Source of the DNA: a virus
Lineage: Duplodnaviria > Caudoviricetes
Direction: 5' to 3' (one strand)
Virus record (IMG/VR): IMGVR_UViG_3300020042_004433
Location: 1 to 35,708 of that record
Length of the DNA stretch: 35,708 bases
The notes below the pieces were generated by a model. The model saw only the letters and a list, made by a program, of their open reading frames with translations. It made no database searches and had not been told where the DNA came from. The position numbers and the translations under genes were made by a program. How positions within the stretch are numbered: position 1 is the stretch's first letter; each line of letters starts with the position of its first letter. This document shows, piece by piece, positions 13,001 to 35,708 of this stretch.

Positions 13001-13082
13001 TAGACTTAGCGGCTTTCTCCATAGCCGAAGTAAACTGCGAAGTGTCGGCTTTTAGTCGAGCGAGTACATCAACGACTGACAT
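10053..13082 (-). CDS. tail tape measure protein
   Basis: 1009 aa, Ala-rich helical; NPIGLVVAAVALLVAGF..LWNRSEAFR motif; follows the tail chaperones. Confidence 0.92.
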   Translation of the reverse strand: MSVVDVLARLKADTSQFTSAMEKAAKSTESVNLAANKTSGVLTNKLRLGFFAAATAAGLFAVKLGRDSVQAAQQSGAAQNRLRRLLLNTNGATEEGIGILNRHSAALEALTGISQQNITTVQSQLATFDLHGGTIATLTPAILDYVVAEKGAGASADEFRSMTNGLAQALNGQFASLTKTGFVLDAQTKKMIKSGTESERAAAIVTVLNSTYRDFAAKALTPAQRAQRDFAKSVEDTKKALGNALQPVIGEVSMALSSTLGPILKNIQAQFADGTAITSFIGFIRGLVTNIVTFVKAIATVFAPVFTGLIVPAIKLAIGAVILFIKTLGVIGGFIQRNAALFQVLYGAVIALGIAVAAYLVQVKLYNIYSAVMLAIQGAQAKATKALTKAQLMLNVAMSMNPIGLVVAAVALLVAGFMLLWNRSEAFRKIMIEVGKVGLKVAGFLIRAFGVFAEGLANLITGPAKALFKLLSFINPEAKKAYEGLKDMTDGIGNFFDGAAKAVEGFSDNLDALGKKKVKGPKIGTVEGELDLSKLGTSTKPAAKTKEELAAAKKVYEDALKSREGAMAKFKELLSAPFGTPSEITKSLSHADATVDSILNMYKDLAEAVEERFKGINQRGKSEIIQFLDTQTKQLIALAGKRELAVEEFKKTTDELNDILKEQATFQKDLSKGIKDFARALINLSDTDTNAILRVTKTGSGLVISQVRKATTGIDSIVKQLTDRLTQVVGFGKNIEKLLAAGLSKDYIQQLLEAGPEAASETAQLLTTASADQIKQINSLYTQINTQATKFGTDMGNVFYGNAVAIAQAFVAGSKAEVDSINAQMTAIKNDIEAVLKPLGDFGGNVGTDMAMKLIAALEAKRALMVATAKSIADDIAAAMAGSSAGPSVSPALEEIKQMNKDLEKLIESVQKASNSTEKTSKIVSVPEFTGPNKYNPLSFAKPTPPPNIGTPAQRTAFAATQSLNTYGSPVMNARPPVTVNITTNKYTPTVTATTIATAIGNQVNYRSR

Positions 13083-13088
13083 TTACTT

Positions 13089-13283
13089 TCACTTCCTTCT
13101 TCTAGCCTCTTGTTCCTGTTCCCATATCCGCAATCGCTCAAGTGCTTCCCACTCTGATAACTCAATAGCAGAGATGGGTTGGAAGTTTGGACTGCCGTAT
13201 AAAAGTTCTTCGACAGTCCTACCCAAGCGTTCGGCTAATTCGAAGACGAATCTTCTATAGCCGTTGCGGAGGAATCTTTTCCC
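13089..13283 (-). CDS. tail assembly chaperone GT extension (-1 frame)
   Basis: The -1 frame from GGGAAAA reads GKRFLRNGYRRFVFELAERLGRTVEELL...ELSEW...RRRK* and ends just before the tape measure start. Confidence 0.8.
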   Translation of the reverse strand, partial: GKRFLRNGYRRFVFELAERLGRTVEELLYGSPNFQPISAIELSEWEALERLRIWEQEQEARRRK

Positions 13284-13618
13284 ACTTCATCGGCACTTTC
13301 CTGCGTGAATCCCGATAACCTCATACCAACTGCTGCTAAGCGATCTAACGCTGTTGCTGCTTTGGCAAGCAAGGCTCCTCGGTCTGCTGGCTTAAATATC
13401 TGTTCGCCTGATACTGAATCAAATGAAGTAGCAATTACAATTTCGGGATAAACAAACTGGAGATTAACTCCACCTTTATTGTCTATTGCTAAATCCATAA
13501 TACGGGTGCGCTCGGCACCAGTCATACCACGAACTTCTACTTTAACACTCCACTCTGGAACTTCTACCATCTCTGATGGAATATCCTGAGCAGATAAGAT
13601 TTGGTCTCTAATGGACAC
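13235..13618 (-). CDS. tail assembly chaperone (gpG-like)
   Basis: VEVPEWSVKVEVRGMTGAER motif; lies between tail tube and tape measure. Confidence 0.85.
   Translation of the reverse strand: MSIRDQILSAQDIPSEMVEVPEWSVKVEVRGMTGAERTRIMDLAIDNKGGVNLQFVYPEIVIATSFDSVSGEQIFKPADRGALLAKAATALDRLAAVGMRLSGFTQESADEVGKDSSATAIEDSSSN
13277..13283 (-). other. programmed -1 frameshift slippery site G GGA AAA
   Basis: X XXY YYZ heptamer in frame near the end of the chaperone gene. Confidence 0.8.
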
Positions 13619-13631
13619 GATTTCTCCTTTT

Positions 13632-13649
13632 GGTCTCGTTGGACTCGGT
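13632..13649 (-). repeat. 18-nt motif ACCGAGTCCAACGAGACC upstream of the chaperone RBS
   Basis: 17/18 identical to 15156-15173. Confidence 0.75.
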
Positions 13650-13678
13650 TATTGGGATTCTATTGCTTTTAATTATTA

Positions 13679-14092
13679 TTAGTAAGCACCGCGGGTGACG
13701 GCACCTGTAATTTGGAACTCTGCTGAATAGGAAACAATATCGCCTACTCCTGCTGAGGATTCGTATGAAGTCAAGAAAGCCTCGCCTGTGTACTTTGTAA
13801 AAGTAGCAGTTGAACCTTCGGGACCATACTCAAATGATACTGAATCAGTCTTTCCTACGATAGCAGCCAAGTGCGTATCTACTGTTGCGTCAAATGAACC
13901 TTCAACGCTGATAGTTGCACCTGTGAAGCCAATTACGTAAGAACGATCAGAGGAACCAAATGAGGTTGTCTCTAAAGTTTCTGCTTCCCGAGGGAAAGAA
14001 ACTGAGTTAAGTGTATTACTGATATCGGTAAGTGTGCCAGCGTTATTATCTACTTTGAATACCGCTGACTTACCATGTCTGAATGTTGGCAT
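13679..14092 (-). CDS. major tail (tube) protein
   Basis: 137 aa; ETTSFGS...YV.G...ISVEG.FD...YGPEG...YSAEFQITG; upstream of the chaperones. Confidence 0.85.
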   Translation of the reverse strand: MPTFRHGKSAVFKVDNNAGTLTDISNTLNSVSFPREAETLETTSFGSSDRSYVIGFTGATISVEGSFDATVDTHLAAIVGKTDSVSFEYGPEGSTATFTKYTGEAFLTSYESSAGVGDIVSYSAEFQITGAVTRGAY

Positions 14093-14096
14093 ATTA

Positions 14097-14825
14097 TTAT
14101 CTCCTTGAAAATGCGACGCTACGGGTTATAGCACCTGTGCCTGTTGCGATTGTGGTTCTTGTCCTCAAGTAACGATTTACCGTCGTTCCTGAAGCAACTT
14201 CATATCTTTCTGAATCTAGTCCAGCAATTGCTACTGTTCCAAATACAGCCAAATCAGCAAAGGTTGTATTGTCTGCTGAATGTTGTACCGCGATTACAGT
14301 AGTTGCCGTTCTAGCGTTTGCAGTTACATGCAAGTGCGCCACTCCACCATTAGTAGATGAAGCAGTATTATCAACACCAGTAGTGTTGGTTGTGGCAGAT
14401 ACGGCAGTCTGGCAAATTAACCAAACCCCCGAATCTAATCCTCCATTTGCTATTGCCTCTGCTGATACAGAAACAACATCAGTTAAAGGACTACTAATCT
14501 CATACGAGGTTGAGGACGCTGCTGCAAGAATGGCTCTTCCACCGATACTGGTGCTGTCGTTAGATATTGTTACTACTTTAGGAGTATTACTTCCTAGGGC
14601 AGCAGAAAATATTGAGTCCGCACTGCTAGCGGTTCCATCAAATAATCCTCCGAAAGATATTGAGCCTTCATTATGGCCAACAATATAAGAGCGGTCAGAT
14701 GAGCCAAAAGTTGTAGTTTCAGGGACATCAACTGAATAGGCGGCGGTCGCGCTATTTAAGTAAGTAGTTAGGTCGAAATCATCACTTAATACGGTGGTAT
14801 TTTTACCATGGCGGAATGTAGGCAT
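14097..14825 (-). CDS. tail-tube paralogue with an extra C-terminal beta domain
   Basis: Shares MPTFRHGK and ETTxFGSSDRSY with the 13679-14092 product. Confidence 0.7.
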   Translation of the reverse strand: MPTFRHGKNTTVLSDDFDLTTYLNSATAAYSVDVPETTTFGSSDRSYIVGHNEGSISFGGLFDGTASSADSIFSAALGSNTPKVVTISNDSTSIGGRAILAAASSTSYEISSPLTDVVSVSAEAIANGGLDSGVWLICQTAVSATTNTTGVDNTASSTNGGVAHLHVTANARTATTVIAVQHSADNTTFADLAVFGTVAIAGLDSERYEVASGTTVNRYLRTRTTIATGTGAITRSVAFSRR

Positions 14826-15091
14826 TATTTACTCTCTTCGACTGGGCGTTGGAATTCTGTTCCATCTTGAACAAATCCATCTTTATCGCCATCTATTGCT
14901 TCTGGGTCAAAAGTAACTTTGGGTTCAATTATGGGTTCAATGATTTTCGTCTTACCATCAGAGAGTTCAATTAAACCTTGGTCTAATAACCACTTGGCTG
15001 ATTTCTCTGGAATATCTGAAACAATAGTTCCCGACTCTGCTCGCTTATCGGGTGGATAATCTATACCTGTTAAGACTCGGTATTGTGTCAT
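14825..15091 (-). CDS. small virion-associated hypothetical protein
   Basis: YRVLTGIDY...G..V.D.P....WLL.QG.IE domain plus a C-terminal DGDKDGFVQDGT..QRP motif; GAGGAG SD. Confidence 0.7.
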   Translation of the reverse strand: MTQYRVLTGIDYPPDKRAESGTIVSDIPEKSAKWLLDQGLIELSDGKTKIIEPIIEPKVTFDPEAIDGDKDGFVQDGTEFQRPVEESK

Positions 15092-15155
15092 TAAGTTTCT
15101 CCTCTGGGCAACACAGACCCAACTACCTTGGGCCTAATGGCTCTGCATGTAGTGG

Positions 15156-15173
15156 GGTCTCTTTGGACTCGGT
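15156..15173 (-). repeat. 18-nt motif ACCGAGTCCAAAGAGACC in the leader of the tail operon
   Basis: Copy of 13632-13649; lies just downstream of a TGc-TAATCT -10-like element (15186-15181). Confidence 0.75.
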
Positions 15174-15216
15174 AAGCAAAGATTAGCACTAATTTACTTA
15201 ATAAAGTGGCTACGCC

Positions 15217-16422
15217 TTACTTTAGTATTGCTATATCTGTAACTCTTATTTCAGGATACATACAAAAAGTTAAAACTCCTGACTCAGATTTTTCGCCTGT
15301 TATCTCTCTCCACCAATCGCTTCCGCCATCCATAGCAGGGGCCTGCAGCCACATACACCCGCCCCAGTCAGCGGCTCTAAAGTGGTGAAAATGCCCTGAA
15401 ACTAATACGTCGGCTCCACCAACATTTTGGCGACCTAATGATTGTCCTTCTAGCCATCTTCTTAACTTTTGTTCGCTACCTTGCCCGCCCCGCCTAGCGG
15501 CATGACCATGAGTGATTCCTAAAACCCAGCCCGCGACCTCTGCTGTGATACTTAATCTGTCCTTTGGGATAGCAAACTGAATATGACCAAAAGCCTCTGG
15601 ATTAGTTTCAAGGATTTCTGCTACTTGCTCAACTATTGCTACATCGTCATTATCGTTTAAGGTCGTGTAAGACTTGCCTGAACTATTACGATTCTCGCCA
15701 TGGTTGCCCGCGACTGCCATAACTTGGACCTCTACAAAGTATTTACTCCACCGTATTAAAGCGTCTCTTAATAAACGCCTTGCTACTTTAACTTGATCTC
15801 GTCGGTCTAACTCAACGCTAAAAGTCTGTTGAGCGTAATGGCCTACGCAACCTTCTATTGAATCTCCAGTCCATAAAACTACTAACTTACCTATTGGCCT
15901 TTTTAATTTTTCTAACTCTTTTATACGGATTTCTACTTTATCTATTCCGTTAAGGATACGCTCGATAGTTCCTTTTAATCCATCTCCATCTGCCTTGCCG
16001 ATTTGCCAGTCTGATAAGACGACTACGAAAGCACCTTCACCAATGAAATTAGTTTTTAACTTAGGTTTATATTTTTTAATTTCGTTTTCTAATTCATTAA
16101 ACTCTTCTTTGCTACCGCTATCTTTAACTTGAACGACTTTACCTTTCCATTGACGGTTCAATGCGCCATCAGGATTACCCCATACGTTAAATAAAACTGG
16201 CTCAATTACTCGGAAGTTTTCAGGGTCTAATCCCCAAATGCGTAGTATCGCGTCCCAGTTGGGCGCTTCTTCTAAAGGTAAAGCATTAGTGGTAATCGTT
16301 CCTTCGTTACCATTCCAAATAACTCCTGCTTGCCACTCCGCACCAATTTTATTTAATTTTGGTTCGCTTGTTGGGTTAGTTGTTGTACTTAAAAGTTTAT
16401 CTATCTCATCGTCTAGGTTCAT
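15217..16422 (-). CDS. calcineurin-like metallophosphoesterase / MRE11-like nuclease
   Basis: SDWQIG, GDSIEG, GNHGE, HGH and GHFHH motifs; likely start MNLDD at 16422 (ATGA overlap). Confidence 0.85.
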   Translation of the reverse strand: MNLDDEIDKLLSTTTNPTSEPKLNKIGAEWQAGVIWNGNEGTITTNALPLEEAPNWDAILRIWGLDPENFRVIEPVLFNVWGNPDGALNRQWKGKVVQVKDSGSKEEFNELENEIKKYKPKLKTNFIGEGAFVVVLSDWQIGKADGDGLKGTIERILNGIDKVEIRIKELEKLKRPIGKLVVLWTGDSIEGCVGHYAQQTFSVELDRRDQVKVARRLLRDALIRWSKYFVEVQVMAVAGNHGENRNSSGKSYTTLNDNDDVAIVEQVAEILETNPEAFGHIQFAIPKDRLSITAEVAGWVLGITHGHAARRGGQGSEQKLRRWLEGQSLGRQNVGGADVLVSGHFHHFRAADWGGCMWLQAPAMDGGSDWWREITGEKSESGVLTFCMYPEIRVTDIAILK

Positions 16423-24192: not shown

Positions 24193-25170
24193 TTAAGCGA
24201 CGACTGTATCCCAGAACCAACCGAGATCGGAAGCAATAACTTTATTATCAAAAGCCATTTCTCCTTCAATGCGGTCTGCCTTGAGAGATTCCATACGGAA
24301 TGAACTTACGCCAACTGTTGAACCGATACCGCCTGATACACCTGTCCATGAGAAAGAGTATCCAGCAGAAGGGGTTAACAAGCCTGGAGTTGGAGCAACA
24401 TAAGCAAGAAGGGCTTTCTTTCCAGAGGTAAATGAATACGCCTGTGAAGCACCTTCGTTGTTTGTAGCCTTTACAGCCTTTGAGATGATAACCCGAGGAA
24501 TATCAAACATTGCTGCCAACATATCAGCAGTAACAGTTTGTGCAGATGTATATTTAATACGATCTACGATATCAGGGTGATTCTTTAGTGCACGGAATAC
24601 ATCGTATCCCAATACTAAAGTGTTTGGCTCCATACCAGTTGTTGAAAGAATACCTGCCTTAGCGTCTTCGATATCATCAATTGGGTCTGAAGAAGCATAG
24701 TCTGACCATTGCTTTACTTCATTTGTTGTAGGAGAACCTGAAACACCATCGTAATCATTAGCCCATACAGAACCAGCAAAGAAGTCTGTGTTCCATTGGA
24801 TTTCTTTACGAAGCATTAAACGACGAGTTACAAACTCTGTCGCTTCGCGAAGTGGGTTGATAGGTGCATCTGAGTTAGCAAGAGTCTGGTCATCTACGTC
24901 CTTATGGAACGCAAATACGTCTGCGCTATAAGAACCAGTTGAAAGACCATAACCTCCACCAGCAGATTCAGTTCCACCAGCGCGGCGTTGAGCCTCATCG
25001 CGGAACCAATCGTTCTTGGTATAGGTAAAGAATTTGTCAGACTTCTTGTCCACAGGAATTACTGGGAACACCTTGTCTGCAATAAAGTTGTCTTGATTTT
25101 GTAGATAGGCGATTGAGATGTTAGTCAGAATCGCGTCTACGTGTACTGAGTTAATACTTGGCTGTGGCAT
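24193..25170 (-). CDS. major capsid protein (HK97 fold, lambda gpE-like family)
   Basis: HVDAILTNISIAY.....IADKVFP.IPV, WSDY.SSDPI.DI and PNTLVLG...LKNHP; 325 aa; follows the cement gene. Confidence 0.9.
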   Translation of the reverse strand: MPQPSINSVHVDAILTNISIAYLQNQDNFIADKVFPVIPVDKKSDKFFTYTKNDWFRDEAQRRAGGTESAGGGYGLSTGSYSADVFAFHKDVDDQTLANSDAPINPLREATEFVTRRLMLRKEIQWNTDFFAGSVWANDYDGVSGSPTTNEVKQWSDYASSDPIDDIEDAKAGILSTTGMEPNTLVLGYDVFRALKNHPDIVDRIKYTSAQTVTADMLAAMFDIPRVIISKAVKATNNEGASQAYSFTSGKKALLAYVAPTPGLLTPSAGYSFSWTGVSGGIGSTVGVSSFRMESLKADRIEGEMAFDNKVIASDLGWFWDTVVA

Positions 25171-25578: not shown

Positions 25579-26493
25579 TTACTTAGCACCCTTCTCGTTT
25601 AGGTATTGGTTGTACAAGTCTGTATTTTGAGTAACAGCATTAGCAAATGCCTGCTCAAACGTTACGCTACTTGTATCAGCAACGGCCTTAGCCATGGAAC
25701 TTAATTGCTCGTAAGCAGATCCACTATTAGGAGTTGATGACTTGCCGATTTCGGCAAATATGTTTGCTGACTCCGCTTGAGCATTAACTGAATTAAGCGC
25801 GTCTTCGAAAGACTTTGCTAACTCTTCGTTAATTTCTGCTAACTGGCGTAGTGCTGGGCCAATTTTTTCTGCGTCAAGGCCTAAGAATTTCCAAGCCTTT
25901 GCTTTCTCAATTGACTCACTATCAGCGCGGGCAACTCTTTCTGCTTTTAGTACTTCTTCTGCACTATTAGCGCGAGCGGTTGCGTCTGCTGCTGACTTCT
26001 CTAAATCTTGTAACATTTTACGAAGTGGCTCTGGAGCCTCTTTCACTAATGAAGCGGTATCGATAACTACTTCATCGTCTTCTGACTTCTTAAGTTTGCC
26101 CTTAGCAGTTGCTAATTCTTCCTCAAGCATTTTGATTTTCTTCATCATGTCGTCATAAGACATTTTTTTCTTATCATCATGCATTGACTTTTCTTTTTCA
26201 TCTTCATGCATTGACTTCTTTTTCTTATCTTCATGCATCGCCTTATCTACTTCATTAGTAGACTCGACTTCAGAAGTTACTTCCACGTTATTGTCTGACA
26301 TGGCTTCCTCCTCAGTCCCTTTTTGGAACTCGTTTGAGTTATTTTTCTTATCGCTTAGGTCTGAAAGAAGGTCGTCTACGCCAGTTAAATTCTCTGACTT
26401 AATAACTAACCAACCTTCATGAAGGTGAGCAGGGTGGTCAACGCCACTAGTTTCCTCAATATTGAGAGCAACCATTTTGCGGGCCTTGGCCAT
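25579..26493 (-). CDS. scaffolding protein with an N-terminal EETSGVDHPA module
   Basis: Charged coiled coil; FAEIGKS...LY..YL.E C-terminus; GAGGAG SD at 26493; second strong SD (GAGGAGG) before the internal ATG at 26301. Confidence 0.8.
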   Translation of the reverse strand: MAKARKMVALNIEETSGVDHPAHLHEGWLVIKSENLTGVDDLLSDLSDKKNNSNEFQKGTEEEAMSDNNVEVTSEVESTNEVDKAMHEDKKKKSMHEDEKEKSMHDDKKKMSYDDMMKKIKMLEEELATAKGKLKKSEDDEVVIDTASLVKEAPEPLRKMLQDLEKSAADATARANSAEEVLKAERVARADSESIEKAKAWKFLGLDAEKIGPALRQLAEINEELAKSFEDALNSVNAQAESANIFAEIGKSSTPNSGSAYEQLSSMAKAVADTSSVTFEQAFANAVTQNTDLYNQYLNEKGAK

Positions 26494-26569
26494 ACTTCTC
26501 CTCTTCATCATAGATAGTTCCTATGTACGGTGCTATCCTGATAATCAGAATAATAACACACGCAAGTCT

Positions 26570-26772: not shown

Positions 26773-27177
26773 TCACTTAACTGGGCCTCCTACTATCCAA
26801 GCGTCGCAAGTTCGTTTACTAGCGCACTTAAAATCAAAAGCCTCACAATAACCAAGGTCTCCAGCCCGAGTAGTATCCCAAGCATTAGCCGCACTATCTC
26901 CAGTTGCTAATCCTTCTTTAATGCAGTTAAGCATCTTTGGGGTTTGAATAAACGCCGCACAATTCCCGCACTTTGATTTTTTTGCTTCAACGACTGTTGT
27001 ATCCCAACGGTCTGCTTTCTTCTGCCAAAAAGGAGTATTAGGTTCATTTGGATTTAACGGACCATAAGCCGCTTTATCAATTGCGTCTTTTCGGTTGGCT
27101 AAATTTTTTTCTACATCGGTAGTTGCGGCAGGGCAACCTTCTGCCTTGCTAACGTAGAAACTAGTTAAATCTACCAT
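26773..27177 (-). CDS. conserved Cys-rich phage protein with HiPIP-like Cys spacing
   Basis: CPAAT...YGPLNP...KCGNCAAF...GYC....FKC...RTCDAW. Confidence 0.7.
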   Translation of the reverse strand: MVDLTSFYVSKAEGCPAATTDVEKNLANRKDAIDKAAYGPLNPNEPNTPFWQKKADRWDTTVVEAKKSKCGNCAAFIQTPKMLNCIKEGLATGDSAANAWDTTRAGDLGYCEAFDFKCASKRTCDAWIVGGPVK

Positions 27178-27347
27178 TACTCCTCTTCAGAATTCCTTAA
27201 CGGGAAAGTGGCAACCCATAAGACGCTACAAAATATAATAGCATATCCTACAACAGTTTTAGCGGAGCCATCAAGGACCACCCAAGCAACAAACATGCCG
27301 AGCAGAGTCCAGATTTGATTGGCTATATCAGAAAACCATTTCTTCAT
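27177..27347 (-). CDS. small 2-TM membrane protein, 56 aa
   Basis: Not in the track. MKKWFSDIANQIWTLLGMFVAWVVLDGSAKTVVGYAIIFCSVLW...; TAATG coupling on both sides. Confidence 0.75.
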   Translation of the reverse strand: MKKWFSDIANQIWTLLGMFVAWVVLDGSAKTVVGYAIIFCSVLWVATFPLRNSEEE

Positions 27348-28816
27348 TACAACCTCCTTCTATAACCTACGCCACCTGCGAGTGCGGCAGTAGTAGCAGA
27401 CTGAACTGCTATACCAGTTACGATAACTGCACTAACAATCGTCTGTTCTGACTCAGAGCGTTCCTCATCAGACATATCTGCTCCGATACTGCTTATAGCC
27501 AATAGAGCCTGAGCAGGGTCAGAAAAAATAGTACTAAGTAATTCTACTGGACTCTCTAATACAACTAGTGCTGCGGCAATCTCGGCAACCACGATTACTT
27601 CATTTCCGTTTATATCTTGGCGTACTTCAACTGGAGTAGAAGGTGGTAAGTCTTCAAAAGTAACTCCTGCTGCTTTAATATCCTCAACCTTTACTGCTCC
27701 GCCATCTGCTTCCAAAATAAGGGCTTCTGCCACAAGTTCTTTTTCTGCCTCAGTAAACCTTCCGTCTTCAGATAATGCTTGTGATAAGTTATTTACTTCA
27801 GAGGTAGTTACGTTTCCATCAGCGTTAATAGCCTCAATAATTAAGTTCTCTTCAGCCATAGTTAATTCGCCTCCTACGCTCAAAGCCTCAATCAAATTAG
27901 TTGCTTCAAGGTTAGAAACTATGCCGTCAGACATAAGAATAGAAACTAGCGCAGAAGCCTCGGCAGGTGTAATATTCAAATCTTGTGAGATATTCTCAAA
28001 GAGTTCGGGAGTTGTAAATGGTTCTATGGACGGATTTTCTAGCACTGGGTTGTCTATCTCTTGTTGTATTGGTATTGAATTATCTTGTGGGTCAACAAAA
28101 GGTGGTTCCACGAGGACTGGCTCTATTACTAAAGGTTCTTCTATCGGTAACGATATTTCTATGGGTGGGTTTTGGTCTAATGTGGGCAACTCAATAATCC
28201 CTATTGGCGAAGGCACATCTACGATTGGTTGAGTTACTACTGGTTGAACAACAACTACCGGAATATCTATAACTGGTGGCGTAACTACAGTAGGAGTGTC
28301 TACAACTGGAGGCGTAACTACGACTGCGGTATTTGTATCAACTACTGCTGTGGGTGTATCGACTTGGGGCGGTATCAAGTTACTACTTAAAGTATAACTA
28401 CCAATAGGTCTTTGATTGCCAGTGACATACTCGAAAGAGGTGGCACGAATCGTATAAGTATCAGCAGTCAGTGTTCCACTAAGCCTTGAAGCCCAGAAGT
28501 TATCAGTAGTTGAATTGCTATCATCATCTTGAGCAATAACAGTTCTAGTATCTGCTTCGCCACCACGATATAAAATAATCCAAGAATCTACCCAAGCCAC
28601 ACGCTCTACTGTTACTGAATCAACTACCTCAGTTCTTGGTCCAGTAGTTGTAGTAATTACATAAGCGGTGGTCGTATCTACATTTACTACTGTGTCTACA
28701 TAGGCTATTTCAGGAGTTAGAGTAATTGTTACTTCATTAGCAAAAGACGCTACTGGGGTCATTACTAACCAGCCAATAGCAAAATAAAGTAAGTTTATGT
28801 TTCTTAGCCTGCGCAA
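27347..28816 (-). CDS. exported, membrane-anchored protein (signal peptide, PPC-like beta domain, Pro-rich stalk, acidic repeats, C-terminal hydrophobic segment)
   Basis: N-terminal MRR plus hydrophobic stretch ending ASFA; DSWIILY...IAQDDD...YTIRATS; P/V/T-rich linker; hydrophobic C-terminus ending RRRL. Confidence 0.7.
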   Translation of the reverse strand: MRRLRNINLLYFAIGWLVMTPVASFANEVTITLTPEIAYVDTVVNVDTTTAYVITTTTGPRTEVVDSVTVERVAWVDSWIILYRGGEADTRTVIAQDDDSNSTTDNFWASRLSGTLTADTYTIRATSFEYVTGNQRPIGSYTLSSNLIPPQVDTPTAVVDTNTAVVVTPPVVDTPTVVTPPVIDIPVVVVQPVVTQPIVDVPSPIGIIELPTLDQNPPIEISLPIEEPLVIEPVLVEPPFVDPQDNSIPIQQEIDNPVLENPSIEPFTTPELFENISQDLNITPAEASALVSILMSDGIVSNLEATNLIEALSVGGELTMAEENLIIEAINADGNVTTSEVNNLSQALSEDGRFTEAEKELVAEALILEADGGAVKVEDIKAAGVTFEDLPPSTPVEVRQDINGNEVIVVAEIAAALVVLESPVELLSTIFSDPAQALLAISSIGADMSDEERSESEQTIVSAVIVTGIAVQSATTAALAGGVGYRRRL

Positions 28817-28912: not shown

Positions 28913-30433
28913 CTAATCATAACTTAATCCGCCAGCACCAAAAGTTTGAACTCCGCCGCTGTTGCTATTTAAGTACTTTGTTTTATCTTCTGAAGTGATA
29001 CTCTTAAATCTAGCCCCCGTTCCACCTAACGCTCTGCCCATAGAAACAATTGATTCGTGGATAGCCTCTTCTAAATCAACGCCGTTCACTCCGCCAAATT
29101 GGATGCCTTCTTTTACTTGATTTAATGCCGTTTTAGAATTCGAAGACAAGTTATCTATGGCTTCTTTACCGCCCACTTTTTGTGCTGTTCTCAAAAGGCT
29201 TTCAACATCTTTTACTTTTTGCTGCGCGTCTGGGTCTTTGCCTGCAAATTTTTTTGCTCTATTTAAGGAACTTAGAGAATTTTTTATTTCGTCTTTACTA
29301 TTTGGTTTTTTTGAACTTAGGCTTGACGGCGCACTTGACCCGCCCCCACCTCCACCTTTTCTTCCATGTGAGGACTGGTTATGTGAGCCATGTTTAAGTA
29401 AATCAAACTCTGCCGCTTTACCAACAGAATTGTAGTCCTTGCCTGAAAGTAGTTCATCTGATAATTCGTCACAGTCACCTGCAAGATCTCTTAATGTATT
29501 AGCAAAGACACCTAGAGAGGTATTTCTTAATGCTATTGCCCCGTCATCTAGTGCGCTTGACGCTCGTTCTAATGATAGTTGACGATCAGATAACGTAACT
29601 CCTTCATTATCTGCCGCTTCAAGATATTGGATAGCGTCGTCAGCGTTTCCTAATGCCTCTTGACCCGCATCGTAATCTTCTTGCGAAATATCTTCACTTT
29701 CTAAATCTGCCTCTATTCGGTCTTCAAATTCATCACGCTCTTCGCCCAGTTTGGAGTTAATTTCTTGAGTCTTATCCTTGATAGTTTCAGTTTTTTCTCC
29801 GCTGCTAGTCGCAGAGCCGTCGCTGCCGCTGCTTCCACCTCTAGAACCAGCATGGGTTTTTTGGTTATGTGAGCCGTGCTTAAATAAATTAGCCTCTATG
29901 ACTTTCCTGAATACTGTTATATCTTCTTCAGGGTTCCATTCAGCAAATCCGCCTGTGCCTGAACCTCGAGTTTTTAATCCAACTGCTATCTTATCGCCAA
30001 TCATTTTAACTGCATGAACTCTAGTCTTGCCCGCTTTATCCAACCTGTCTCCTACCTTAATATCTTTGGCTGATATTTTCGCGGCAGTAAAGGACTTGCT
30101 CTCGGAATTTTGGGCACCGCCACCCTTGCCATGAGAACTCTGATTATGTGAAGCGTGTTTTAATAACTGCTCATCTAAAGATTTAGTTAGGCTAGACATT
30201 TTATGGCCGACTTGAATATCTGTTTCTTTACCATCTCGATATAACTGAATTAGTACGGCAGGATTATCTTTTTCGCCTTTAATCTTAAACTTAACATTTG
30301 GAATATCTAAAGTGCCGTAATCCATTACATGAATAACTTTACCTGTTGCTCTACCGCCTGATGAGTTCCATGAAACCATATCTCCTTCTTTTAAGGACTT
30401 GGCTTTATCTAGTGCGGTGTTATAGAGAAACAT
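28913..30433 (-). CDS. multi-module protein: DUF2945/HVA1-like SH3-Tudor domain plus three KH..HNQ..H-tagged modules
   Basis: LKEGDMVSWNSSGGRATGKV N-terminus; KHASHNQSSHG, KHGSHNQKTHA and KHGSHNQSSHG, each followed by a Gly/Ser linker. Confidence 0.75.
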   Translation of the reverse strand: MFLYNTALDKAKSLKEGDMVSWNSSGGRATGKVIHVMDYGTLDIPNVKFKIKGEKDNPAVLIQLYRDGKETDIQVGHKMSSLTKSLDEQLLKHASHNQSSHGKGGGAQNSESKSFTAAKISAKDIKVGDRLDKAGKTRVHAVKMIGDKIAVGLKTRGSGTGGFAEWNPEEDITVFRKVIEANLFKHGSHNQKTHAGSRGGSSGSDGSATSSGEKTETIKDKTQEINSKLGEERDEFEDRIEADLESEDISQEDYDAGQEALGNADDAIQYLEAADNEGVTLSDRQLSLERASSALDDGAIALRNTSLGVFANTLRDLAGDCDELSDELLSGKDYNSVGKAAEFDLLKHGSHNQSSHGRKGGGGGGSSAPSSLSSKKPNSKDEIKNSLSSLNRAKKFAGKDPDAQQKVKDVESLLRTAQKVGGKEAIDNLSSNSKTALNQVKEGIQFGGVNGVDLEEAIHESIVSMGRALGGTGARFKSITSEDKTKYLNSNSGGVQTFGAGGLSYD

Positions 30434-30981
30434 TAGCCGCTGTATTTTTGTTGTAAGCCCACATAAGTAACCATATAACCAGTAGCAATGTCTGCTGCAT
30501 CCATTGATAATCCGCTAGTTAGTCGACTTAAAACGCCGCGATTAGTCTTATCAATAGTTTTCGACGCCGATAAAATTTTATCCGCCGCTCTATTTAATTT
30601 TTTAATTTTTTCTCCATTATTTTTTATCCCTGCTAATGGCATTAAAGCAGACCTTGCCATCTGTAAATCACCTTGCGCATTACTTAACTTTCTCGCGTCT
30701 ACTAGAGAAGGCGCCCTTGTGGCTTGTCTAGTAACATCTCGGCTAAGGGCGTCTATCTCTTCGATTAAGCCCAGCGCGTCCTTATCAATCGCGTCTGAAA
30801 GTTTGCTGTTAGTGTCAGGATTGGCTTGATTTACACTAGAGTTCGGTTTGGAAGCAGAACCTCCACCTGCTCCGCTACTTCCGCCTCCACCGCTACCTTT
30901 TCTTCCATGGCTGGACTGGTTATGCGAACCATGTTTAAGAACTTCTTCTTCTAAGCCGTGATCGTTAAGAAATATTCCCAT
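30433..30981 (-). CDS. KH..HNQ..H-tagged helical protein
   Basis: VLKHGSHNQSSHGRKG, then a Gly/Ser linker and a helical domain. Confidence 0.7.
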   Translation of the reverse strand: MGIFLNDHGLEEEVLKHGSHNQSSHGRKGSGGGGSSGAGGGSASKPNSSVNQANPDTNSKLSDAIDKDALGLIEEIDALSRDVTRQATRAPSLVDARKLSNAQGDLQMARSALMPLAGIKNNGEKIKKLNRAADKILSASKTIDKTNRGVLSRLTSGLSMDAADIATGYMVTYVGLQQKYSG

Positions 30982-31103
30982 TATTTACGCCTCTTTTTCT
31001 TTAGGAATTTGTATAACAAGATTGGACTCAGATACAGCAACAGAGCAAGCGCACTCGCCCGAACAGCAGGACGATTGCGGTACGAATCCAAGATTTTTCT
31101 CAT
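30981..31103 (-). CDS. small hypothetical protein, 40 aa (an alternative Cys-rich frame spans 30985-31107)
   Basis: MRKILDSYRNRPAVRASALALLLYLSPILLYKFLKKKRRK with ATGA and TAATG coupling; frame choice uncertain. Confidence 0.4.
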   Translation of the reverse strand: MRKILDSYRNRPAVRASALALLLYLSPILLYKFLKKKRRK

Positions 31104-32428
31104 CCATTTTTCTTCTTCCGCTTTGATGGCTTCATTATAGTATCAACATGGACACTATTCACGTCAGGGGAAGATAACTCCACCTTAACTTCTTCAGGCT
31201 CAGGTAAGTCCGCACTTATCCTCTTTGCTTTGCCACCGATTGAATAGCCTCTTAATTTTCCTGCCTTTACTAAGTCCCAAGCCCAGTCTTTCCATTGAAC
31301 TCCCATGAAAACTGTATTGGGTGGATAAGTCACTTGGCTTGTCGTACCATTGGCTTTCATCATAGGAACGCTTAACTCATAAGGGAAAGTCATTACCTCT
31401 AACCACTCACCAGCAACCACATCTCTGTTATGTTGTAAATGGATTCTGCGGTCATTGCTCTTTACATAATCCCAAACAGCAACCTGTAATTCATCAGCAT
31501 CAGTCCATTCAGTATGAGCGTCAATTTGGTTAGGAATGTAAAGCGGTCCTAAGGTAAATTTTCTTTCGTCTGCCTTAATAAAAGGTTCTTCATACTTAAA
31601 AGATTTTTCTACGCCGTTAATAATTCCGCTTACCCAACCTTTAGCAGGATCTCCGCCCCAAGCGTCCCAAGCAACTCTTCCGCCTGAAGGAAAGCCTTTT
31701 TCTCCTTGACTAAAACCTTTGCCTGCTTTATCGCTTTCATGGCGGGCTAAGAAAGAATTCATACGGCGAATAGTTCTTAAACTTACTGGGCGTCTTGCGG
31801 CTAATTGAGCAGCGCGAGCGCGACCAACGCTAGTAAAGCCTCCACCAGCATGTCCTTCTCTAATCCATTCCAATGCTCTTTTAGCAGCACGAGCAACTGA
31901 AGCAGGGGGAGTAAAAGTATCTGAGTCTGCCGCCTTATCTATTTCATCTTCAATAGGTTCTACTAGAGTAGTTACGCCATCTCCAGTTAATCCAAAGGCG
32001 ACTTTATAGTAATCGTACTCACCTTCTTCCCATTGGTCCACATATTTTTCTACTAGCATCTCTTCACCATCAAATAGTTCTTCTAGTTCAATTCCGTCAA
32101 ATACTAACTCAGTATCTAAAACAACTGGCATATTAGATACTTCATCTTTACTAAAATCTAAACCGCGCTTAGTCAATTCGGCTGTAATATAGTGATGTGT
32201 GACTAGCGCGGCTGAATTAAGTTCCTCTTGATTTAACTTCTCATAAAGGCTTAATAGTTTTTCTGCCGTGGCTTTTTCAACCGCGTCAGGAACATTGGCG
32301 TATAAGGCTCTTACATGGGCGGCGGCTTTTGCTTTAGTAGTATGGCAAGCAACCATTTCACCTGTGCTCGGTTTAATTACGGCATAGGCAGAACAGCCTT
32401 CAACATTAGTAGCAACTTTATACGGCAT
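31100..32428 (-). CDS. prohead maturation serine protease, XkdF-like C-terminal domain, with two N-terminal accessory domains
   Basis: FTLGPLYIP...DAH.EW, IHLQH, W.LVK.G.LRGYSIGG; middle G.T.VGRARA.QLA...RM.SF.ARH...G.VAW.AWGG domain; leaderless -10 TAAACT 6 nt upstream. Confidence 0.85.
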   Translation of the reverse strand: MPYKVATNVEGCSAYAVIKPSTGEMVACHTTKAKAAAHVRALYANVPDAVEKATAEKLLSLYEKLNQEELNSAALVTHHYITAELTKRGLDFSKDEVSNMPVVLDTELVFDGIELEELFDGEEMLVEKYVDQWEEGEYDYYKVAFGLTGDGVTTLVEPIEDEIDKAADSDTFTPPASVARAAKRALEWIREGHAGGGFTSVGRARAAQLAARRPVSLRTIRRMNSFLARHESDKAGKGFSQGEKGFPSGGRVAWDAWGGDPAKGWVSGIINGVEKSFKYEEPFIKADERKFTLGPLYIPNQIDAHTEWTDADELQVAVWDYVKSNDRRIHLQHNRDVVAGEWLEVMTFPYELSVPMMKANGTTSQVTYPPNTVFMGVQWKDWAWDLVKAGKLRGYSIGGKAKRISADLPEPEEVKVELSSPDVNSVHVDTIMKPSKRKKKNG

Positions 32429-32437
32429 AGACTTAGT

Positions 32438-32593
32438 TTACCCCTTAACAGGCTTTTTGAAGGCTCCGCGCCTCTCTAACTCTTTCAATGCCTCTAAATT
32501 ATCTCCAGCAGCAAATTCCATTAAATCTTGTTCGCTCGCTGTGGAGAAATTAAACTTAGTGCAGGAACCTAGCGTCACTTTTATTTCTTCCAT
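32438..32593 (-). CDS. small hypothetical protein, 51 aa
   Basis: Not in the track. MEEIKVTLGSCTKFNFSTASEQDLMEFAAGDNLEALKELERRG...; overlaps the end of the peptidase gene and fills the gap. Confidence 0.55.
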   Translation of the reverse strand: MEEIKVTLGSCTKFNFSTASEQDLMEFAAGDNLEALKELERRGAFKKPVKG

Positions 32594-33498
32594 GGCTTAT
32601 CCCATCCAAATCTTTCTGCCATCGCTACTGCTAGAGGATTACCCTCTGCAGGAACATTTCTTTGTTGCGATAAAACATATTGGGCGAACCCTTCAGCAAA
32701 TGCTTCGGCTGGTTCAGATTTGCCATACTCGCTCATCATATTAGTTCCCGCTCTTCCATTGTAATCAGCCTCCACTAGTTTCGTTATTATATTATCGCGC
32801 TCACCAAAGTTTGAACTTTCTAAATTAGGACGATCTAAGGCATGACCCCACTCATGAGTTAAAGTATAAGTCCTGACTCCTACAACGCTTCCCATCCCCA
32901 TGCCTACATTATTTACTGGCCTAGGGAACAAAGCGTCTCCCGCTAGAAGCATTTTATTTCCACCTCGGTCTGTAGCGCCAAACGCGTCTTTATCAGGAGC
33001 AAGTTCTTTAAGTCTTTTATCGCTAATACGCAGGACTAATGACTCTAAAGGGTACTGCGTTTGTAAGTCATCAATGTCTCGCATTAACGACCCTTCATTT
33101 ATTTTCGTCTGATGCTTACTAGGATTGTCGCCAGGTTCTGAAAAGACTACAATTTGGCCATTCTTGTACGCTCTTTCAGGTTTAGCCTTTAAGTATTCTT
33201 CGTCAGTTCTAGCATAATTTTTCTTCCATTCGCTTTTAGGAATTATTCTTTTCTCATATTTACTTTCCGCTAATCGGCACGAGTCGTCAATAAACGCAAC
33301 ATAATCTTTATTACTCATTTCATGCCACTCGCCCTTTTCCCATTTAGGACCCATACCGCCGCCGTGAGTTTTTTGATTGTGACGACCTGCTAAGTGTTTA
33401 GAAATATCGTTTTTGTCTATTAAAGTAATGTGGTCTGCCTTTGCGGTTGGCTTAGTAATTATTATTTCAAAAGCCTCGTCATAACTAAATTTATTCAT
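32581..33498 (-). CDS. zincin metallopeptidase (lethal-factor/MPTase-like) with KH-tag
   Basis: LTHEWGHALD and SEYG...PAEAFAEGF; N-terminal KHLAGRHNQKTHGGG. Confidence 0.8.
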   Translation of the reverse strand: MNKFSYDEAFEIIITKPTAKADHITLIDKNDISKHLAGRHNQKTHGGGMGPKWEKGEWHEMSNKDYVAFIDDSCRLAESKYEKRIIPKSEWKKNYARTDEEYLKAKPERAYKNGQIVVFSEPGDNPSKHQTKINEGSLMRDIDDLQTQYPLESLVLRISDKRLKELAPDKDAFGATDRGGNKMLLAGDALFPRPVNNVGMGMGSVVGVRTYTLTHEWGHALDRPNLESSNFGERDNIITKLVEADYNGRAGTNMMSEYGKSEPAEAFAEGFAQYVLSQQRNVPAEGNPLAVAMAERFGWDKPWKK

Positions 33499-34201
33499 TT
33501 ACTACCCTCATTTCCCATACTTTACCTTCCCTGTTTAATACTTCTAGTTTCGCCATTCTAGGCATTAAAAACTCCAGTTCATGGGCATAAGGGTTTTTTT
33601 GTTTGTCTAATCCAAAAACGCTATTTGGAAACACTCCTTTAGACTGAGGCGGAACTTCTATCTTAAAAATTAACCCTTGTTGCCCTCCCATTTGCAAAGC
33701 AATCATAGGGTCTAAAGTCGTCGAGATAAAGCCTGGGTCTTGAAATACATCGCCTTGCTCGAGTTTCTCGAAAGTCTCTTTTGCTCCACCTTGAAGAGTT
33801 ACCCCTCTGTACACAGTAAAATTACTTTGCGCAACGGGAGCCGCGTCAATTATTTCATCTAAAGCGTCAGCGTCCATTAAATCTTCGTCGTCTGCACTAC
33901 CTGCCCGTAATTTTTTATTTAACTCTATGCCATTTGAGCCCACATAATTTTTTAAGAAAACTTCTCCTTCTATTCCTGTTTGGCTAGCACTTAAAAGATT
34001 GCGCTCGTTCAATAGTTTCTCTTCTTGCTCGTCAGTACTTGGTTCTACGCTTTCTTGCCACTCACCAAGGTCTTGGTAGATTTTGCTTCTACCACCTGCG
34101 TGCGACTGCTGGCTATGGCGACCGGGGGCATGTTTATTTACATTGGCTCGCCTAACTACTTTTAATCCGAGCGCCGAACTATAACCAAATTTATCATTCA
34201 T
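33491..34201 (-). CDS. ADP-ribosyltransferase (VIP2/Alt-like, R-S-E clade) with KH-tag
   Basis: LN..LR, VYRG, GFISTT and HELEFLMPR; N-terminal KHAPGRHSQQSHAGG. Confidence 0.88.
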   Translation of the reverse strand: MNDKFGYSSALGLKVVRRANVNKHAPGRHSQQSHAGGRSKIYQDLGEWQESVEPSTDEQEEKLLNERNLLSASQTGIEGEVFLKNYVGSNGIELNKKLRAGSADDEDLMDADALDEIIDAAPVAQSNFTVYRGVTLQGGAKETFEKLEQGDVFQDPGFISTTLDPMIALQMGGQQGLIFKIEVPPQSKGVFPNSVFGLDKQKNPYAHELEFLMPRMAKLEVLNREGKVWEMRVVNE

Positions 34202-34964
34202 TGACTACCTCCACATCCCAGACTTTACCTTCTTTTCTAAGTAGTTGAAACTTGCTATTGCGGGGTAATAAAAACTCGTACTCGCTATTGAAGGCCCTGC
34301 CTGCATTTGGTAAAGTACTTCTTTTAGCAATGCTGTTCATAAATATACCTTTACTAGTTTTGGGCACGTTAATTCTTAAGACTATTCCTTGACTGCTTAC
34401 GCTATCTTCAAGACCTCCAAAGTGCGCAGCAATCCTAGGGTTCAAAGTAGTTGAAGCGAACGCTCCGTCGCTAAAGACATCTCCTTCTTCTAAATCTCCA
34501 AAAAAACCTTGAGCCGCTTCGGCTTGTTCTCGGTCAGAGTAACTAGTTTTTACTCCGCGGTAAACAATAACGTCTTCACCTAAAGAGGGTGCCATATCAA
34601 AGGCTTCATCAAAGACTCTTACCTCTTGCCGCAGACCTGAGTCTAAGTATCCTTCCCTTAAATGATCGTTTATTGCGTAGCCTGAACCTTGATATTCGGC
34701 AAAGACCGCTACTTGTTCTGGCGTCCATTCCGCCTCTTGGCTTTTTGATATTTTATCTTGTTCTTCTATGGTCGGTTTATTACTTTTATTATCGTACTCA
34801 TACATAAATGTTCCTAAATCTTGATACACGGGACCGAAGTCTTTACTACCTCTGCCACCTGCATGAGATTGTTGGTTATGGCGACCAGGAGCGTGCTTAC
34901 TTAAATCTTTTTTCTCGACTAAAGTAATATGCTCAGCCTTTAATATAAACGCTTGTAGTGCCAT
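34194..34964 (-). CDS. ADP-ribosyltransferase (VIP2/Alt-like) with KH-tag
   Basis: Y..IN..LR, VYRG, AFASTT and SEYEFLLPR; N-terminal KHAPGRHNQQSHAGG. Confidence 0.9.
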   Translation of the reverse strand: MALQAFILKAEHITLVEKKDLSKHAPGRHNQQSHAGGRGSKDFGPVYQDLGTFMYEYDNKSNKPTIEEQDKISKSQEAEWTPEQVAVFAEYQGSGYAINDHLREGYLDSGLRQEVRVFDEAFDMAPSLGEDVIVYRGVKTSYSDREQAEAAQGFFGDLEEGDVFSDGAFASTTLNPRIAAHFGGLEDSVSSQGIVLRINVPKTSKGIFMNSIAKRSTLPNAGRAFNSEYEFLLPRNSKFQLLRKEGKVWDVEVVNE

Positions 34965-35707
34965 TATGAAAGCCTATCAAACATATGAACGCCGCTTTCT
35001 ATGCCTGTGTATTTTAATTCCACATTTCTCGGTAGCAGCATTTCTAACTCAGACGCATAACTATCTGTATGAGTGTTCAAATATCCATTTACGAATAACC
35101 CTTGAGTAAAAGAGCCGCTGTTAATTTGCATCACGGCTTTAGGTTTATTATCATACGGGTTCAAGTTGGAAAGTTTATCGAGCATAAACTTGCCGTCAGG
35201 CGATGTTAAATCGCGTATGGTAGTTGAAGTGAAACCTTTATCTTTGAAAACTGTGCCGACAGATAACTTTTCTAACACATCTTTATCCATAACTCTATAC
35301 AATATGGCATTTTCTTCCATACGAGGTGCTTGGGATATGGCTCGGTCGATTAGTTCAGTTTTTCTTTCGACACTTCCTTTAGATTCTCTACCATATGACC
35401 ATTCTCTTACAACTTTTTGTTTATCCTTAACCGAACTTGCTCTTGCGTAAGCGTTTATCAAATCAGAATCTCCGTCTTGATACCCATTTACTGTTAACTC
35501 TTCTTCTTCCCAATCTTCGTTTTCCATCTTAACTCCGAAAGCGTAATCGTCTCCGTATTTCGGTTTTATAGAGTCAGAAGTTAGAAGGATTCCTTTAGAC
35601 CTTCCCCCTGCGTGGCTTTGCTGACTATGCTGACCTGCTAAATGTTTAGCAACATCTTTCTTTTTAATAATAGTTAAACCAATCGTTGATGAATACCCGA
35701 AGTACTC
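34964..35707 (-). CDS. ADP-ribosyltransferase (VIP2/Alt-like) with KH-tag; start lies just beyond the window
   Basis: The frame stays open 60 codons upstream of the track's ATG 35527: EYFGYSSTIGLTIIKKKDVAKHLAGQHSQQSHAGG...; catalytic LYR, GFTSTT and SELEMLLPR. Confidence 0.88.
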   Translation of the reverse strand, partial: EYFGYSSTIGLTIIKKKDVAKHLAGQHSQQSHAGGRSKGILLTSDSIKPKYGDDYAFGVKMENEDWEEEELTVNGYQDGDSDLINAYARASSVKDKQKVVREWSYGRESKGSVERKTELIDRAISQAPRMEENAILYRVMDKDVLEKLSVGTVFKDKGFTSTTIRDLTSPDGKFMLDKLSNLNPYDNKPKAVMQINSGSFTQGLFVNGYLNTHTDSYASELEMLLPRNVELKYTGIESGVHMFDRLS

Positions 35708-35708
35708 A

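Follow-up and report, generated by a model that had tools for sequence, protein, structure and literature searches.

The window analysed here is an entire viral contig of 35.7 kb (IMGVR_UViG_3300020042_004433). Around its XkdF prohead protease gene lie six open reading frames (ORFs) that carry eight copies of a short peptide tag with three histidines, K-H-x2/4-H-[NS]-Q-x-x-H-[GA], all in frame and on the minus strand of the six-frame translation. The tag system is a real and widespread variant of head-cargo processing, undescribed in the literature searched, and the comparative case for a proteolytic cut at the tag is unusually strong. Packaging and cutting of the tagged proteins, taken alone, appear highly probable. 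We favour the hypothesis, at a probability of about 0.55 for the whole chain, that the peptide starting with the first histidine of the tag (His1), once exposed by the protease, serves as a post-cut handle, keeping the released modules inside the head and linking their departure to that of the DNA.

The eight copies in six genes reported in a preliminary description of the window are borne out. The strict pattern finds all of them and has no match in any of 300 six-frame shuffles, which rules out a chance or low-complexity origin. They are preceded by hydrophobic-x-K triplets (LLK, LFK, LLK, VLK, ISK, VNK, LSK and VAK), as had been listed. At the conserved residues, 52% of 168 comparisons between window copies show the same codon, where codon usage predicts 56%, indicating that selection acts on the peptide and not on the DNA, again as first proposed. 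Contig pieces of other freshwater runs span seven of the eight tags, among the pieces listed, and 9 of 24 listed runs of freshwater metagenomes contain at least half of the sampled words of the window. No RNA run is found among the listed runs containing it.

The lysine before His1 had been taken as part of the tag, with cleavage after it. The cut before His1 is likely, while the assignment of Lys to the tag does not stand, the preceding residue (P1) being K, R, E, F, Y, A or L depending on the genome. In a scan with this position open, Lys precedes His1 in 209 of 245 unique peptides, chance matches included. Scans without codons starting with A before His1 recovered genomes whose copies all stand behind a residue other than Lys: F in L242 and L248; R in L261, L272 and L274; Y in L290; E in L291, L308, L427 and L451; A in L295, L039 and L336; L in L449 (L- and P-numbers label the collected DNA stretches and proteins, L001 being for instance a close relative of the window). 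A matrix trained on K-type cores only, and therefore blind to upstream positions, gave at 30 bits or more 176 groups, 60 of them with several copies. Within these 60 groups 967 of 968 pairs of tags share P1 (permutation mean 621, maximum 704 in 2,000), and the sole mismatch, in L206, comes from two overlapping matches within a His-rich stretch. At positions -2 to -6, by contrast, only 8-31% of pairs agree. P1 is also shared in 727 of 751 pairs from a set of 120 proteins and in 742 of 758 pairs from 110 more, the mismatches being mostly F/L mixtures; the profile behind both sets included four upstream columns.

The identity of P1 follows the type of head protease. Among groups of at least 3 kb, 57 of 86 have a protease match and 29 have none. 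XkdF accompanies K in 27 groups (17 chosen by the XkdF search or being the window itself, 10 by motif alone), HK97-type proteases accompany R in 12, and the F class has proteases like those of cluster-B mycobacteriophages in 9 groups and Mu-like ones in 2. The Y (2), E (2) and A (3) groups all have non-XkdF proteases, both identified E-class proteases matching phrog_15531. In a sample of 50 whole records of our choice (35 K-type and 15 non-K, many of them fragments), the XkdF family PF14550 is present in 16 of 35 K-type records versus 0 of 15 non-K records (Fisher p 0.0009, relatedness uncorrected), and PF04586 in 5 of the 35 K-type, both R-type and none of the 13 others. By this comparison, Lys is a genome-specific cut residue upstream of the tag and P1 tracks the protease family. 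Because P1 is fixed per genome and changes with the protease family, His1 is likely the P1' residue of a cut made by each phage's own head protease. The same dependence makes a metal-driven self-cleavage at the tag unlikely.

Sites of the same type are found in other head proteins. The scaffold of the window has 10 hydrophobic-x-K|[ASH] sites where 1.9 are expected, and its protease gene has 6 against 1.5. Counted over regions of the kind that head proteases take away, P1 of the K class stands before Ala/Ser 277 times versus 143 expected (25 scaffolds). HK97-type proteases cut after basic residues, and in the capsid delta regions of the R class the corresponding count is 38 versus 19. The E and A classes show a weaker enrichment in the protease polypeptide (z 2.9 and 3.6). 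The site enrichment suggests that the window XkdF processes head proteins behind hydrophobic-x-Lys; the specificity of XkdF is the subject of none of the papers listed. Tag sites of the E class read [LIV]-x-E. According to the available parts of the two sources, T4 gp21 cuts after a measured motif L/I-x-E (PMC9026906) and SPN3US gp245 cuts after A-x-E (PMC10052503).

The tag is not confined to the window. Twenty of 25 IMG/VR relatives of its protease carry 1-8 tags in the available DNA and five carry none (two of them shorter than 5 kb). A DNA pattern for H-x-x-G-x-H-D-Q-x-x-H-G with the upstream residue open matched 208 stretches from 20 of 64 collection parts; the copies number up to 15 per group and reach 18 in one complete 172-kb record. 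A 24-position tag profile yielded 1,282 clusters (E at most 0.001) among 1.84 billion representatives at 50% identity. The idea of a portable peptide in front of unrelated effector-like modules and tied to head modules holds: of the 52 viral groups that the motif alone had picked out and whose context reaches 8 kb or more, 45 have a terminase, portal, MuF, protease or capsid gene detected with a limited set of seeds, and four of the seven missed groups have a head gene by other searches of their DNA. The tag is common to heads with different portals (PF04860, PF06074, phrog_10963) and capsids (PF05065, PF03864, phrog_777, PF25209). A scan of bacterial genomes gave 122 stretches, mostly chance matches, with 22 rows at 28 bits or more of which about a dozen are credible. 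The credible prophage hits lie in Actinomycetota and Chloroflexota, plus two in bins labelled Pseudomonadota, and prophages of cultured actinomycetes carry the tag, among them those of Streptosporangium longisporum (L308), Sphaerisporangium album (L419), Actinoplanes sp. (L362) and Micromonospora sp. (L331). No cultured phage with the tag was found; INPHARED searches with short queries, which are insensitive, gave weak hits only, and five of these that were fetched have no tag. Pfam, PHROGs and NCBIfam hold no family covering the tag, PDB has no match for its profile or for a sister tag, and the ESM Atlas gave no usable hit.

Tagged modules follow a common order: spacer, P3-P1 site, tag, Gly-rich linker and cargo. 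The cargo includes ADP-ribosyltransferases (ARTs) of several families, GNAT, zincins, NUDIX, zeta kinase, MazF-like proteins, topoisomerase IB, 2H, InPase and many unnamed modules. The three ARTs and the zincin described in the window are confirmed, the ARTs exceeding the Pfam cut-off (PF03496; E 2e-13, 4e-20 and 5e-10) and the zincin having the HExxH motif. Some modules are single genes with a short leader, others are strung together in polyproteins that hold up to 10 copies, and others again are fused behind structural proteins or the protease. The tag stands behind MuF in L001, where the order is MuF, tag, module, tag, ART, behind the portal in L362 and L039, and behind the protease in L008 and L015. 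A protease or MuF is present in 20 of 215 tagged ORFs and a MuF-type motif in 10 of 215; tagged relatives with MuF include L001, L003, L290 and L331. In L290, an intein (PF14890) is inserted in the MuF domain of the tagged polyprotein at 11387-15481 (plus strand). Within the tag, H, H, Q and H are nearly invariant, and Arg/Lys or Trp comes just after it in 363 of 410 copies. Leaders of merely 6-14 residues retain the complete site and none of the 410 copies directly follows Met, a pattern that a requirement for a free His1 would explain; by the residue list in PMC10052503, His is not among the residues that Met aminopeptidase uncovers.

The favoured chain of events can be drawn as follows. Precursors would enter the prohead through structural fusions or scaffold-like leaders, and the prohead protease very probably cuts between P1 and His1. 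The conserved part of the site comes after the cut and would thus remain as the N-terminus of each freed module. Three His with Asp/Asn-Gln, in loops of variable length, suggest a metal-closed loop: the free amine of His1, the two other His and Asp/Asn-Gln might close a small, probably metal-held structure, which might in turn bind a partner present in every head, the packaged DNA or the exit channel being the likeliest candidates. The enzymes carried, among them ARTs, GNATs and peptidases, would then act in the host early in infection, for which T4 Alt and MuF proteins give the precedent. A broader form of this proposal is possible but doubtful: a protease-activated metal-binding handle, silent until exposure of His1, would tether enzymes to the genome or exit channel for co-ejection, would pass from one head module to an unrelated one through the re-tuning of a single upstream residue, and would be one of a family of interchangeable post-cut tags forming a general phage protein-delivery code.

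Several points weigh against the handle hypothesis. Cutting, packaging, ejection, and metal and DNA binding are predictions from sequence, and the groups compared are not independent because genomes are related, so that the z-scores and the Fisher test overstate the strength of the association. P1 of the F and Y classes is unenriched, or for F at best barely enriched, in protease/scaffold regions (F 9 vs 10.3; Y 0 vs 1.5 and 0 vs 4.9), and four of six F-class capsid N-regions have mostly [LIV]-x-A sites instead. L428 has one F tag and one A tag. F-class phages have two protease-labelled profile matches in one gene, a pairing that may explain the mismatch of sites. The tag is, by its distribution, an accessory element: four cultured actinobacterial phages with a related XkdF domain and the same head module have no tag in the stretches of 22-28 kb that were read. 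In T4, foreign proteins are ejected when all they bear is the capsid-targeting sequence (CTS), which is removed, showing that ejection there needs no retained tag (PMC9026906, in the part available). The same post-cut slot is also filled, even within one polyprotein, by sister tags lacking the three His (Y/F-x-x-D-Q-x-R...G-R-F/W), and metal binding may therefore not be central to the tag. Finally, 130 of 215 tagged ORFs have nothing but a leader of at most 70 residues, and these leaders show no targeting motif in common; the tag therefore still qualifies as a possible address. Structure predictions are of low confidence or uninformative: the tag peptide modelled with an alignment has a predicted local distance difference test score (pLDDT) of 62 and a predicted template modelling score of 0.17 and contains no metal, the XkdF domain modelled together with the uncut tag peptide scores 0.02, and the single-sequence fold of ART gene 2 (pLDDT 33) is unusable.

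Sister tags were seen in L049/L464 (G007), L047, L248, L258, L266, P0029 and P0182. In two G007 polyproteins nine sister-tag copies alternate with a His tag, D-Q and G-x-aromatic being common to both tags. An extended His variant, H-L-G-P-G-x-H-P-x-G-x-x-Q-x-x-H (L041, L468-L477, P0010, P0182), is found in 10 IMG/VR stretches preceded by K, E, L or Q.

The preliminary description held that a label exposed by cleavage loads the cargo. This meets a problem of timing, since head proteases cut proteins that are already in the prohead (PMC9026906, in the part available). A loading role could be saved if the uncut tag docked the precursor on the protease, along an extended P' side, or on another prohead part, the cut then trimming the leader and separating the modules. 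We judge this unlikely, even though the tag is the only conserved element of the 130 ORFs with short leaders, which are dissimilar from each other, and P'-side docking would equally demand the strict adjacency to P1 seen in 967 of 968 pairs. That head proteases share one fold also speaks for it. Against it, the tag stays the same whether the protease is XkdF, HK97-type, Mu-like or cluster-B-like, and in heads whose portals and capsids are unlike. The scaffold sites, which have Ala/Ser at P1', are without tag. The protease does have a segment copied from the N-terminal arm of the capsid protein, with which it could tow substrates in; the presence of this separate motif together with the constancy of the tag favours a post-cut handle. 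The tag is also retained behind MuF, portal and protease, which are packaged anyway, hence where no address is needed. The receptor candidate tried, the N-terminal Cys/His domain of the protease, is present in just 24 of 79 tag-bearing groups, plus one tag-less locus, and was rejected; the tag does not require it. Known targeting signals, in the accessible text of PMC9026906, precede the cut and are removed.

Another reading, which we find improbable, has the cargo packaged and cut as above but confines the role of the His-first peptide to the injected host, where it would confer stability, capture metal or direct the enzyme to DNA, the membrane or a host machine. Such a role would agree with a tag staying on the mature cargo, with T4 ejection working without a retained tag (PMC9026906, same part) and with credible prophage hosts that are mostly Actinomycetota and Chloroflexota; cargo as different as ART, GNAT, zincin, NUDIX, topoisomerase, zeta kinase and 2H fits shared transport better than a shared destination. 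The motif could also be a recombination joint or a neutral linker for cassette swapping with no role as a peptide, a reading that we hold to be very improbable. One zincin module does have three different upstream sides, in the window, in L001/L004 and in L003. Strain contigs show joints ending at tags, with 29383-30153 skipped in four of four runs, the cargo 30432-30887 replaced in three of four and the zincin cargo 32442-33439 skipped in four of four, evidence that is weak owing to short sides and 85% likeness and possibly reflects repeats or relatives. The cargo thus appears to be swapped at the tag, weakly so for the strain joints. Yet synonymous codons are scrambled (the 52% versus 56% given above) while H, H, Q and H are nearly invariant, and P1 is re-tuned in every copy of a genome, so that swapping is better read as a consequence.

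In the window, siphovirus-like structural genes lie on the minus strand, with scaffold-like, cement-like and major capsid genes after the protease (Table 1). The PF14550 match of the protease scores 39.5 bits against a curated cut-off of 24. His57 of the XkdF domain is invariant and Ser120 is at least 90% conserved in 29 aligned rows; we take both to be catalytic. The SH3-like domain initially placed behind a tag is in fact the PF11160 Tudor/SH3-like domain (amino acids (aa) 17-70), which precedes the first tag of its gene, and the module behind is unnamed. Pfam detects no MuF domain in the six tagged genes, the contig ending first. In L001, the ORF start lies 23 residues before the leader-tag equivalent to that of window ART gene 3. 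The 51-aa ORF at 32438-32593, after the zincin gene, has no match in Pfam or PHROGs.

Table 1. Tagged genes, tag copies and head genes of the window; tag spans run from the P1 Lys to the last residue, G/A.
Feature	Position	Strand	Description
Major capsid protein	24193..25170	-	phrog_1005, PF03864
Likely scaffold	25579..26511	-	phrog_13547; none of its K sites precedes a His tag
506-aa polyprotein	28913..30433	-	Modules of 93, 162 and 159 aa, each headed by a tag and of no named family, behind Tudor-like domain PF11160 (aa 17-70)
Tag copy	29363..29395	-	Short form (P1 Lys + H-x2-H-N-Q-x-x-H-G), third in 506-aa gene
Tag copy	29849..29881	-	Short form, second in 506-aa gene
Tag copy	30128..30160	-	Short form, first in 506-aa gene
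182-aa gene	30433..30981	-	Leader, tag, basic 166-aa module, no named family
Tag copy	30904..30936	-	Short form, behind 16-residue leader of 182-aa gene
Prohead protease gene	31100..32428	-	XkdF domain PF14550 at aa 286-404 (about 31217-31573)
Protease C-terminal segment	31136..31168	-	Copies N-terminal arm of major capsid protein; candidate docking signal
Zincin gene	32581..33498	-	Tagged zincin-like metallopeptidase; HExxH in sequence, Pfam match below cut-off only
Tag copy	33361..33399	-	Long form (H-x2-G-x-H), zincin gene
ART gene 1	33491..34201	-	Tagged ADP-ribosyltransferase, PF03496; R, STT, ExE in sequence
Tag copy	34097..34135	-	Long form, ART gene 1
ART gene 2	34194..34964	-	Tagged ADP-ribosyltransferase, PF03496; also phrog_802 Alt-like
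Tag copy	34860..34898	-	Long form, ART gene 2
ART gene 3	34964..35708	-	Tagged ADP-ribosyltransferase, PF03496; 5' end cut off by contig end
Tag copy	35609..35647	-	Long form, ART gene 3

The C-terminal segment of the protease copies the capsid arm encoded at 25129-25167 (minus strand), with similar copies in L008, L015, L020, L052, L060 and L242. In L052, L060 and L242 the copy is located on non-protease proteins, and in L242 it matches the arm variant of the same genome. This copy looks like a candidate capsid-docking signal and resembles a true address more than the His tag does. Amino acids 1-52 of the protease (32273-32428, minus strand) form a small Cys/His domain that recurs in head proteins of the R, F and Y classes. 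Between the cargo genes and the scaffold, the minus strand encodes at 27347-28816 an acidic protein of 489 aa whose start resembles a signal sequence, whose middle is rich in Pro, Thr and Val and whose end is hydrophobic. It has no tag, K sites or family, a homologue exists in L001, and the summed contig depth is high near 28500-28740. A Cys-rich 134-aa protein just upstream of the scaffold (26773-27177, minus strand) has two hydrophobic-x-K|A sites and no family match. Two ORFs beside the terminase of L001 (8-565 and 2910-3626, plus strand), which we presume to be FolE-like and gene-88-like, suggest a 7-deazaguanine DNA modification. In Arthrobacter phages Kovu, Laroye and Ottawa (L452-L454), an XkdF protease domain of 52-63% identity forms the C-terminus of a gene whose annotation reads 'RNA ligase' or 'aldolase'. 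The MuF-type HPxCRC motif is in the gene called 'capsid maturation protease'; the labels look misplaced.

How proteins are chosen for head carriage and ejection with DNA is known in detail mainly for T4. The tag could serve as a sequence marker of likely injected proteins, its 1,282 clusters consisting mostly of unnamed modules that are probably rich in counter-defence enzymes. It would also split polyvalent proteins into their likely mature units and allow the cleavage preference of uncharacterised prohead proteases to be deduced from sequence. Should the retained peptide prove to be a handle, it would provide a 12-residue portable tool for phage protein delivery and reveal a use of head proteolysis unlike that of T4.

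Known systems share parts of this arrangement. Histidine-brace proteins, like the lytic polysaccharide monooxygenases (LPMO) and CopC, have an N-terminal His generated by a protease, whose amine and ring bind metal together with a further His. These are folded domains cut by signal peptidase, whereas the His tag is a peptide of 10-16 residues and its metal binding is hypothetical. In the literature searched (open-access, with partial texts) the tag is undescribed; the supplementary alignments of PMC5512222, which were not opened, could contain it. T4 IPI-III and Alt with their CTS are alike in being accessory proteins, including an ART, that are loaded in the head (as predicted for the tagged proteins), cut by the protease after a short P3-P1 motif and ejected (PMC9026906, in the part available). 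The CTS precedes the gp21 cut and is removed, while the His tag follows the predicted cut and would stay: all its conserved residues come after P1, and the variability at -2 to -6 leaves no conserved signal upstream. The L/I-x-E motif of gp21 is shared by the E class only, the window XkdF going with hydrophobic-x-K. Unlike the CTS, the His tag recurs inside polyproteins, behind structural proteins and across protease families with different P1.

MuF toxins (PMC5576092) and head-associated ARTs (PMC9503650), in the parts of these papers available, resemble the tagged proteins by variable enzymes placed behind MuF/portal or among head genes, with a proposed injection. The available part of PMC5576092 mentions no junction motif or cut (zero occurrences of 'motif' and of 'cleav'), and most tagged modules are not fused to MuF. 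The phage-type polyvalent proteins are similarly large multi-enzyme proteins near virion genes, with ART-PolyVal, InPase, GNAT, 2H, ParB, zeta and zincin domains (PMC5512222, in the part available). Disparate enzyme domains in one polypeptide near virion genes are likewise found in P0141, P0130, P0122, L248 and L290; in the window only the 506-aa gene is multi-module. The same part of PMC5512222 proposes processing by the zincin, whereas the tagged borders have instead sites of the head-protease type followed by a fixed peptide. Zincins do occur as tagged cargo, while the module borders follow the family of the head protease.

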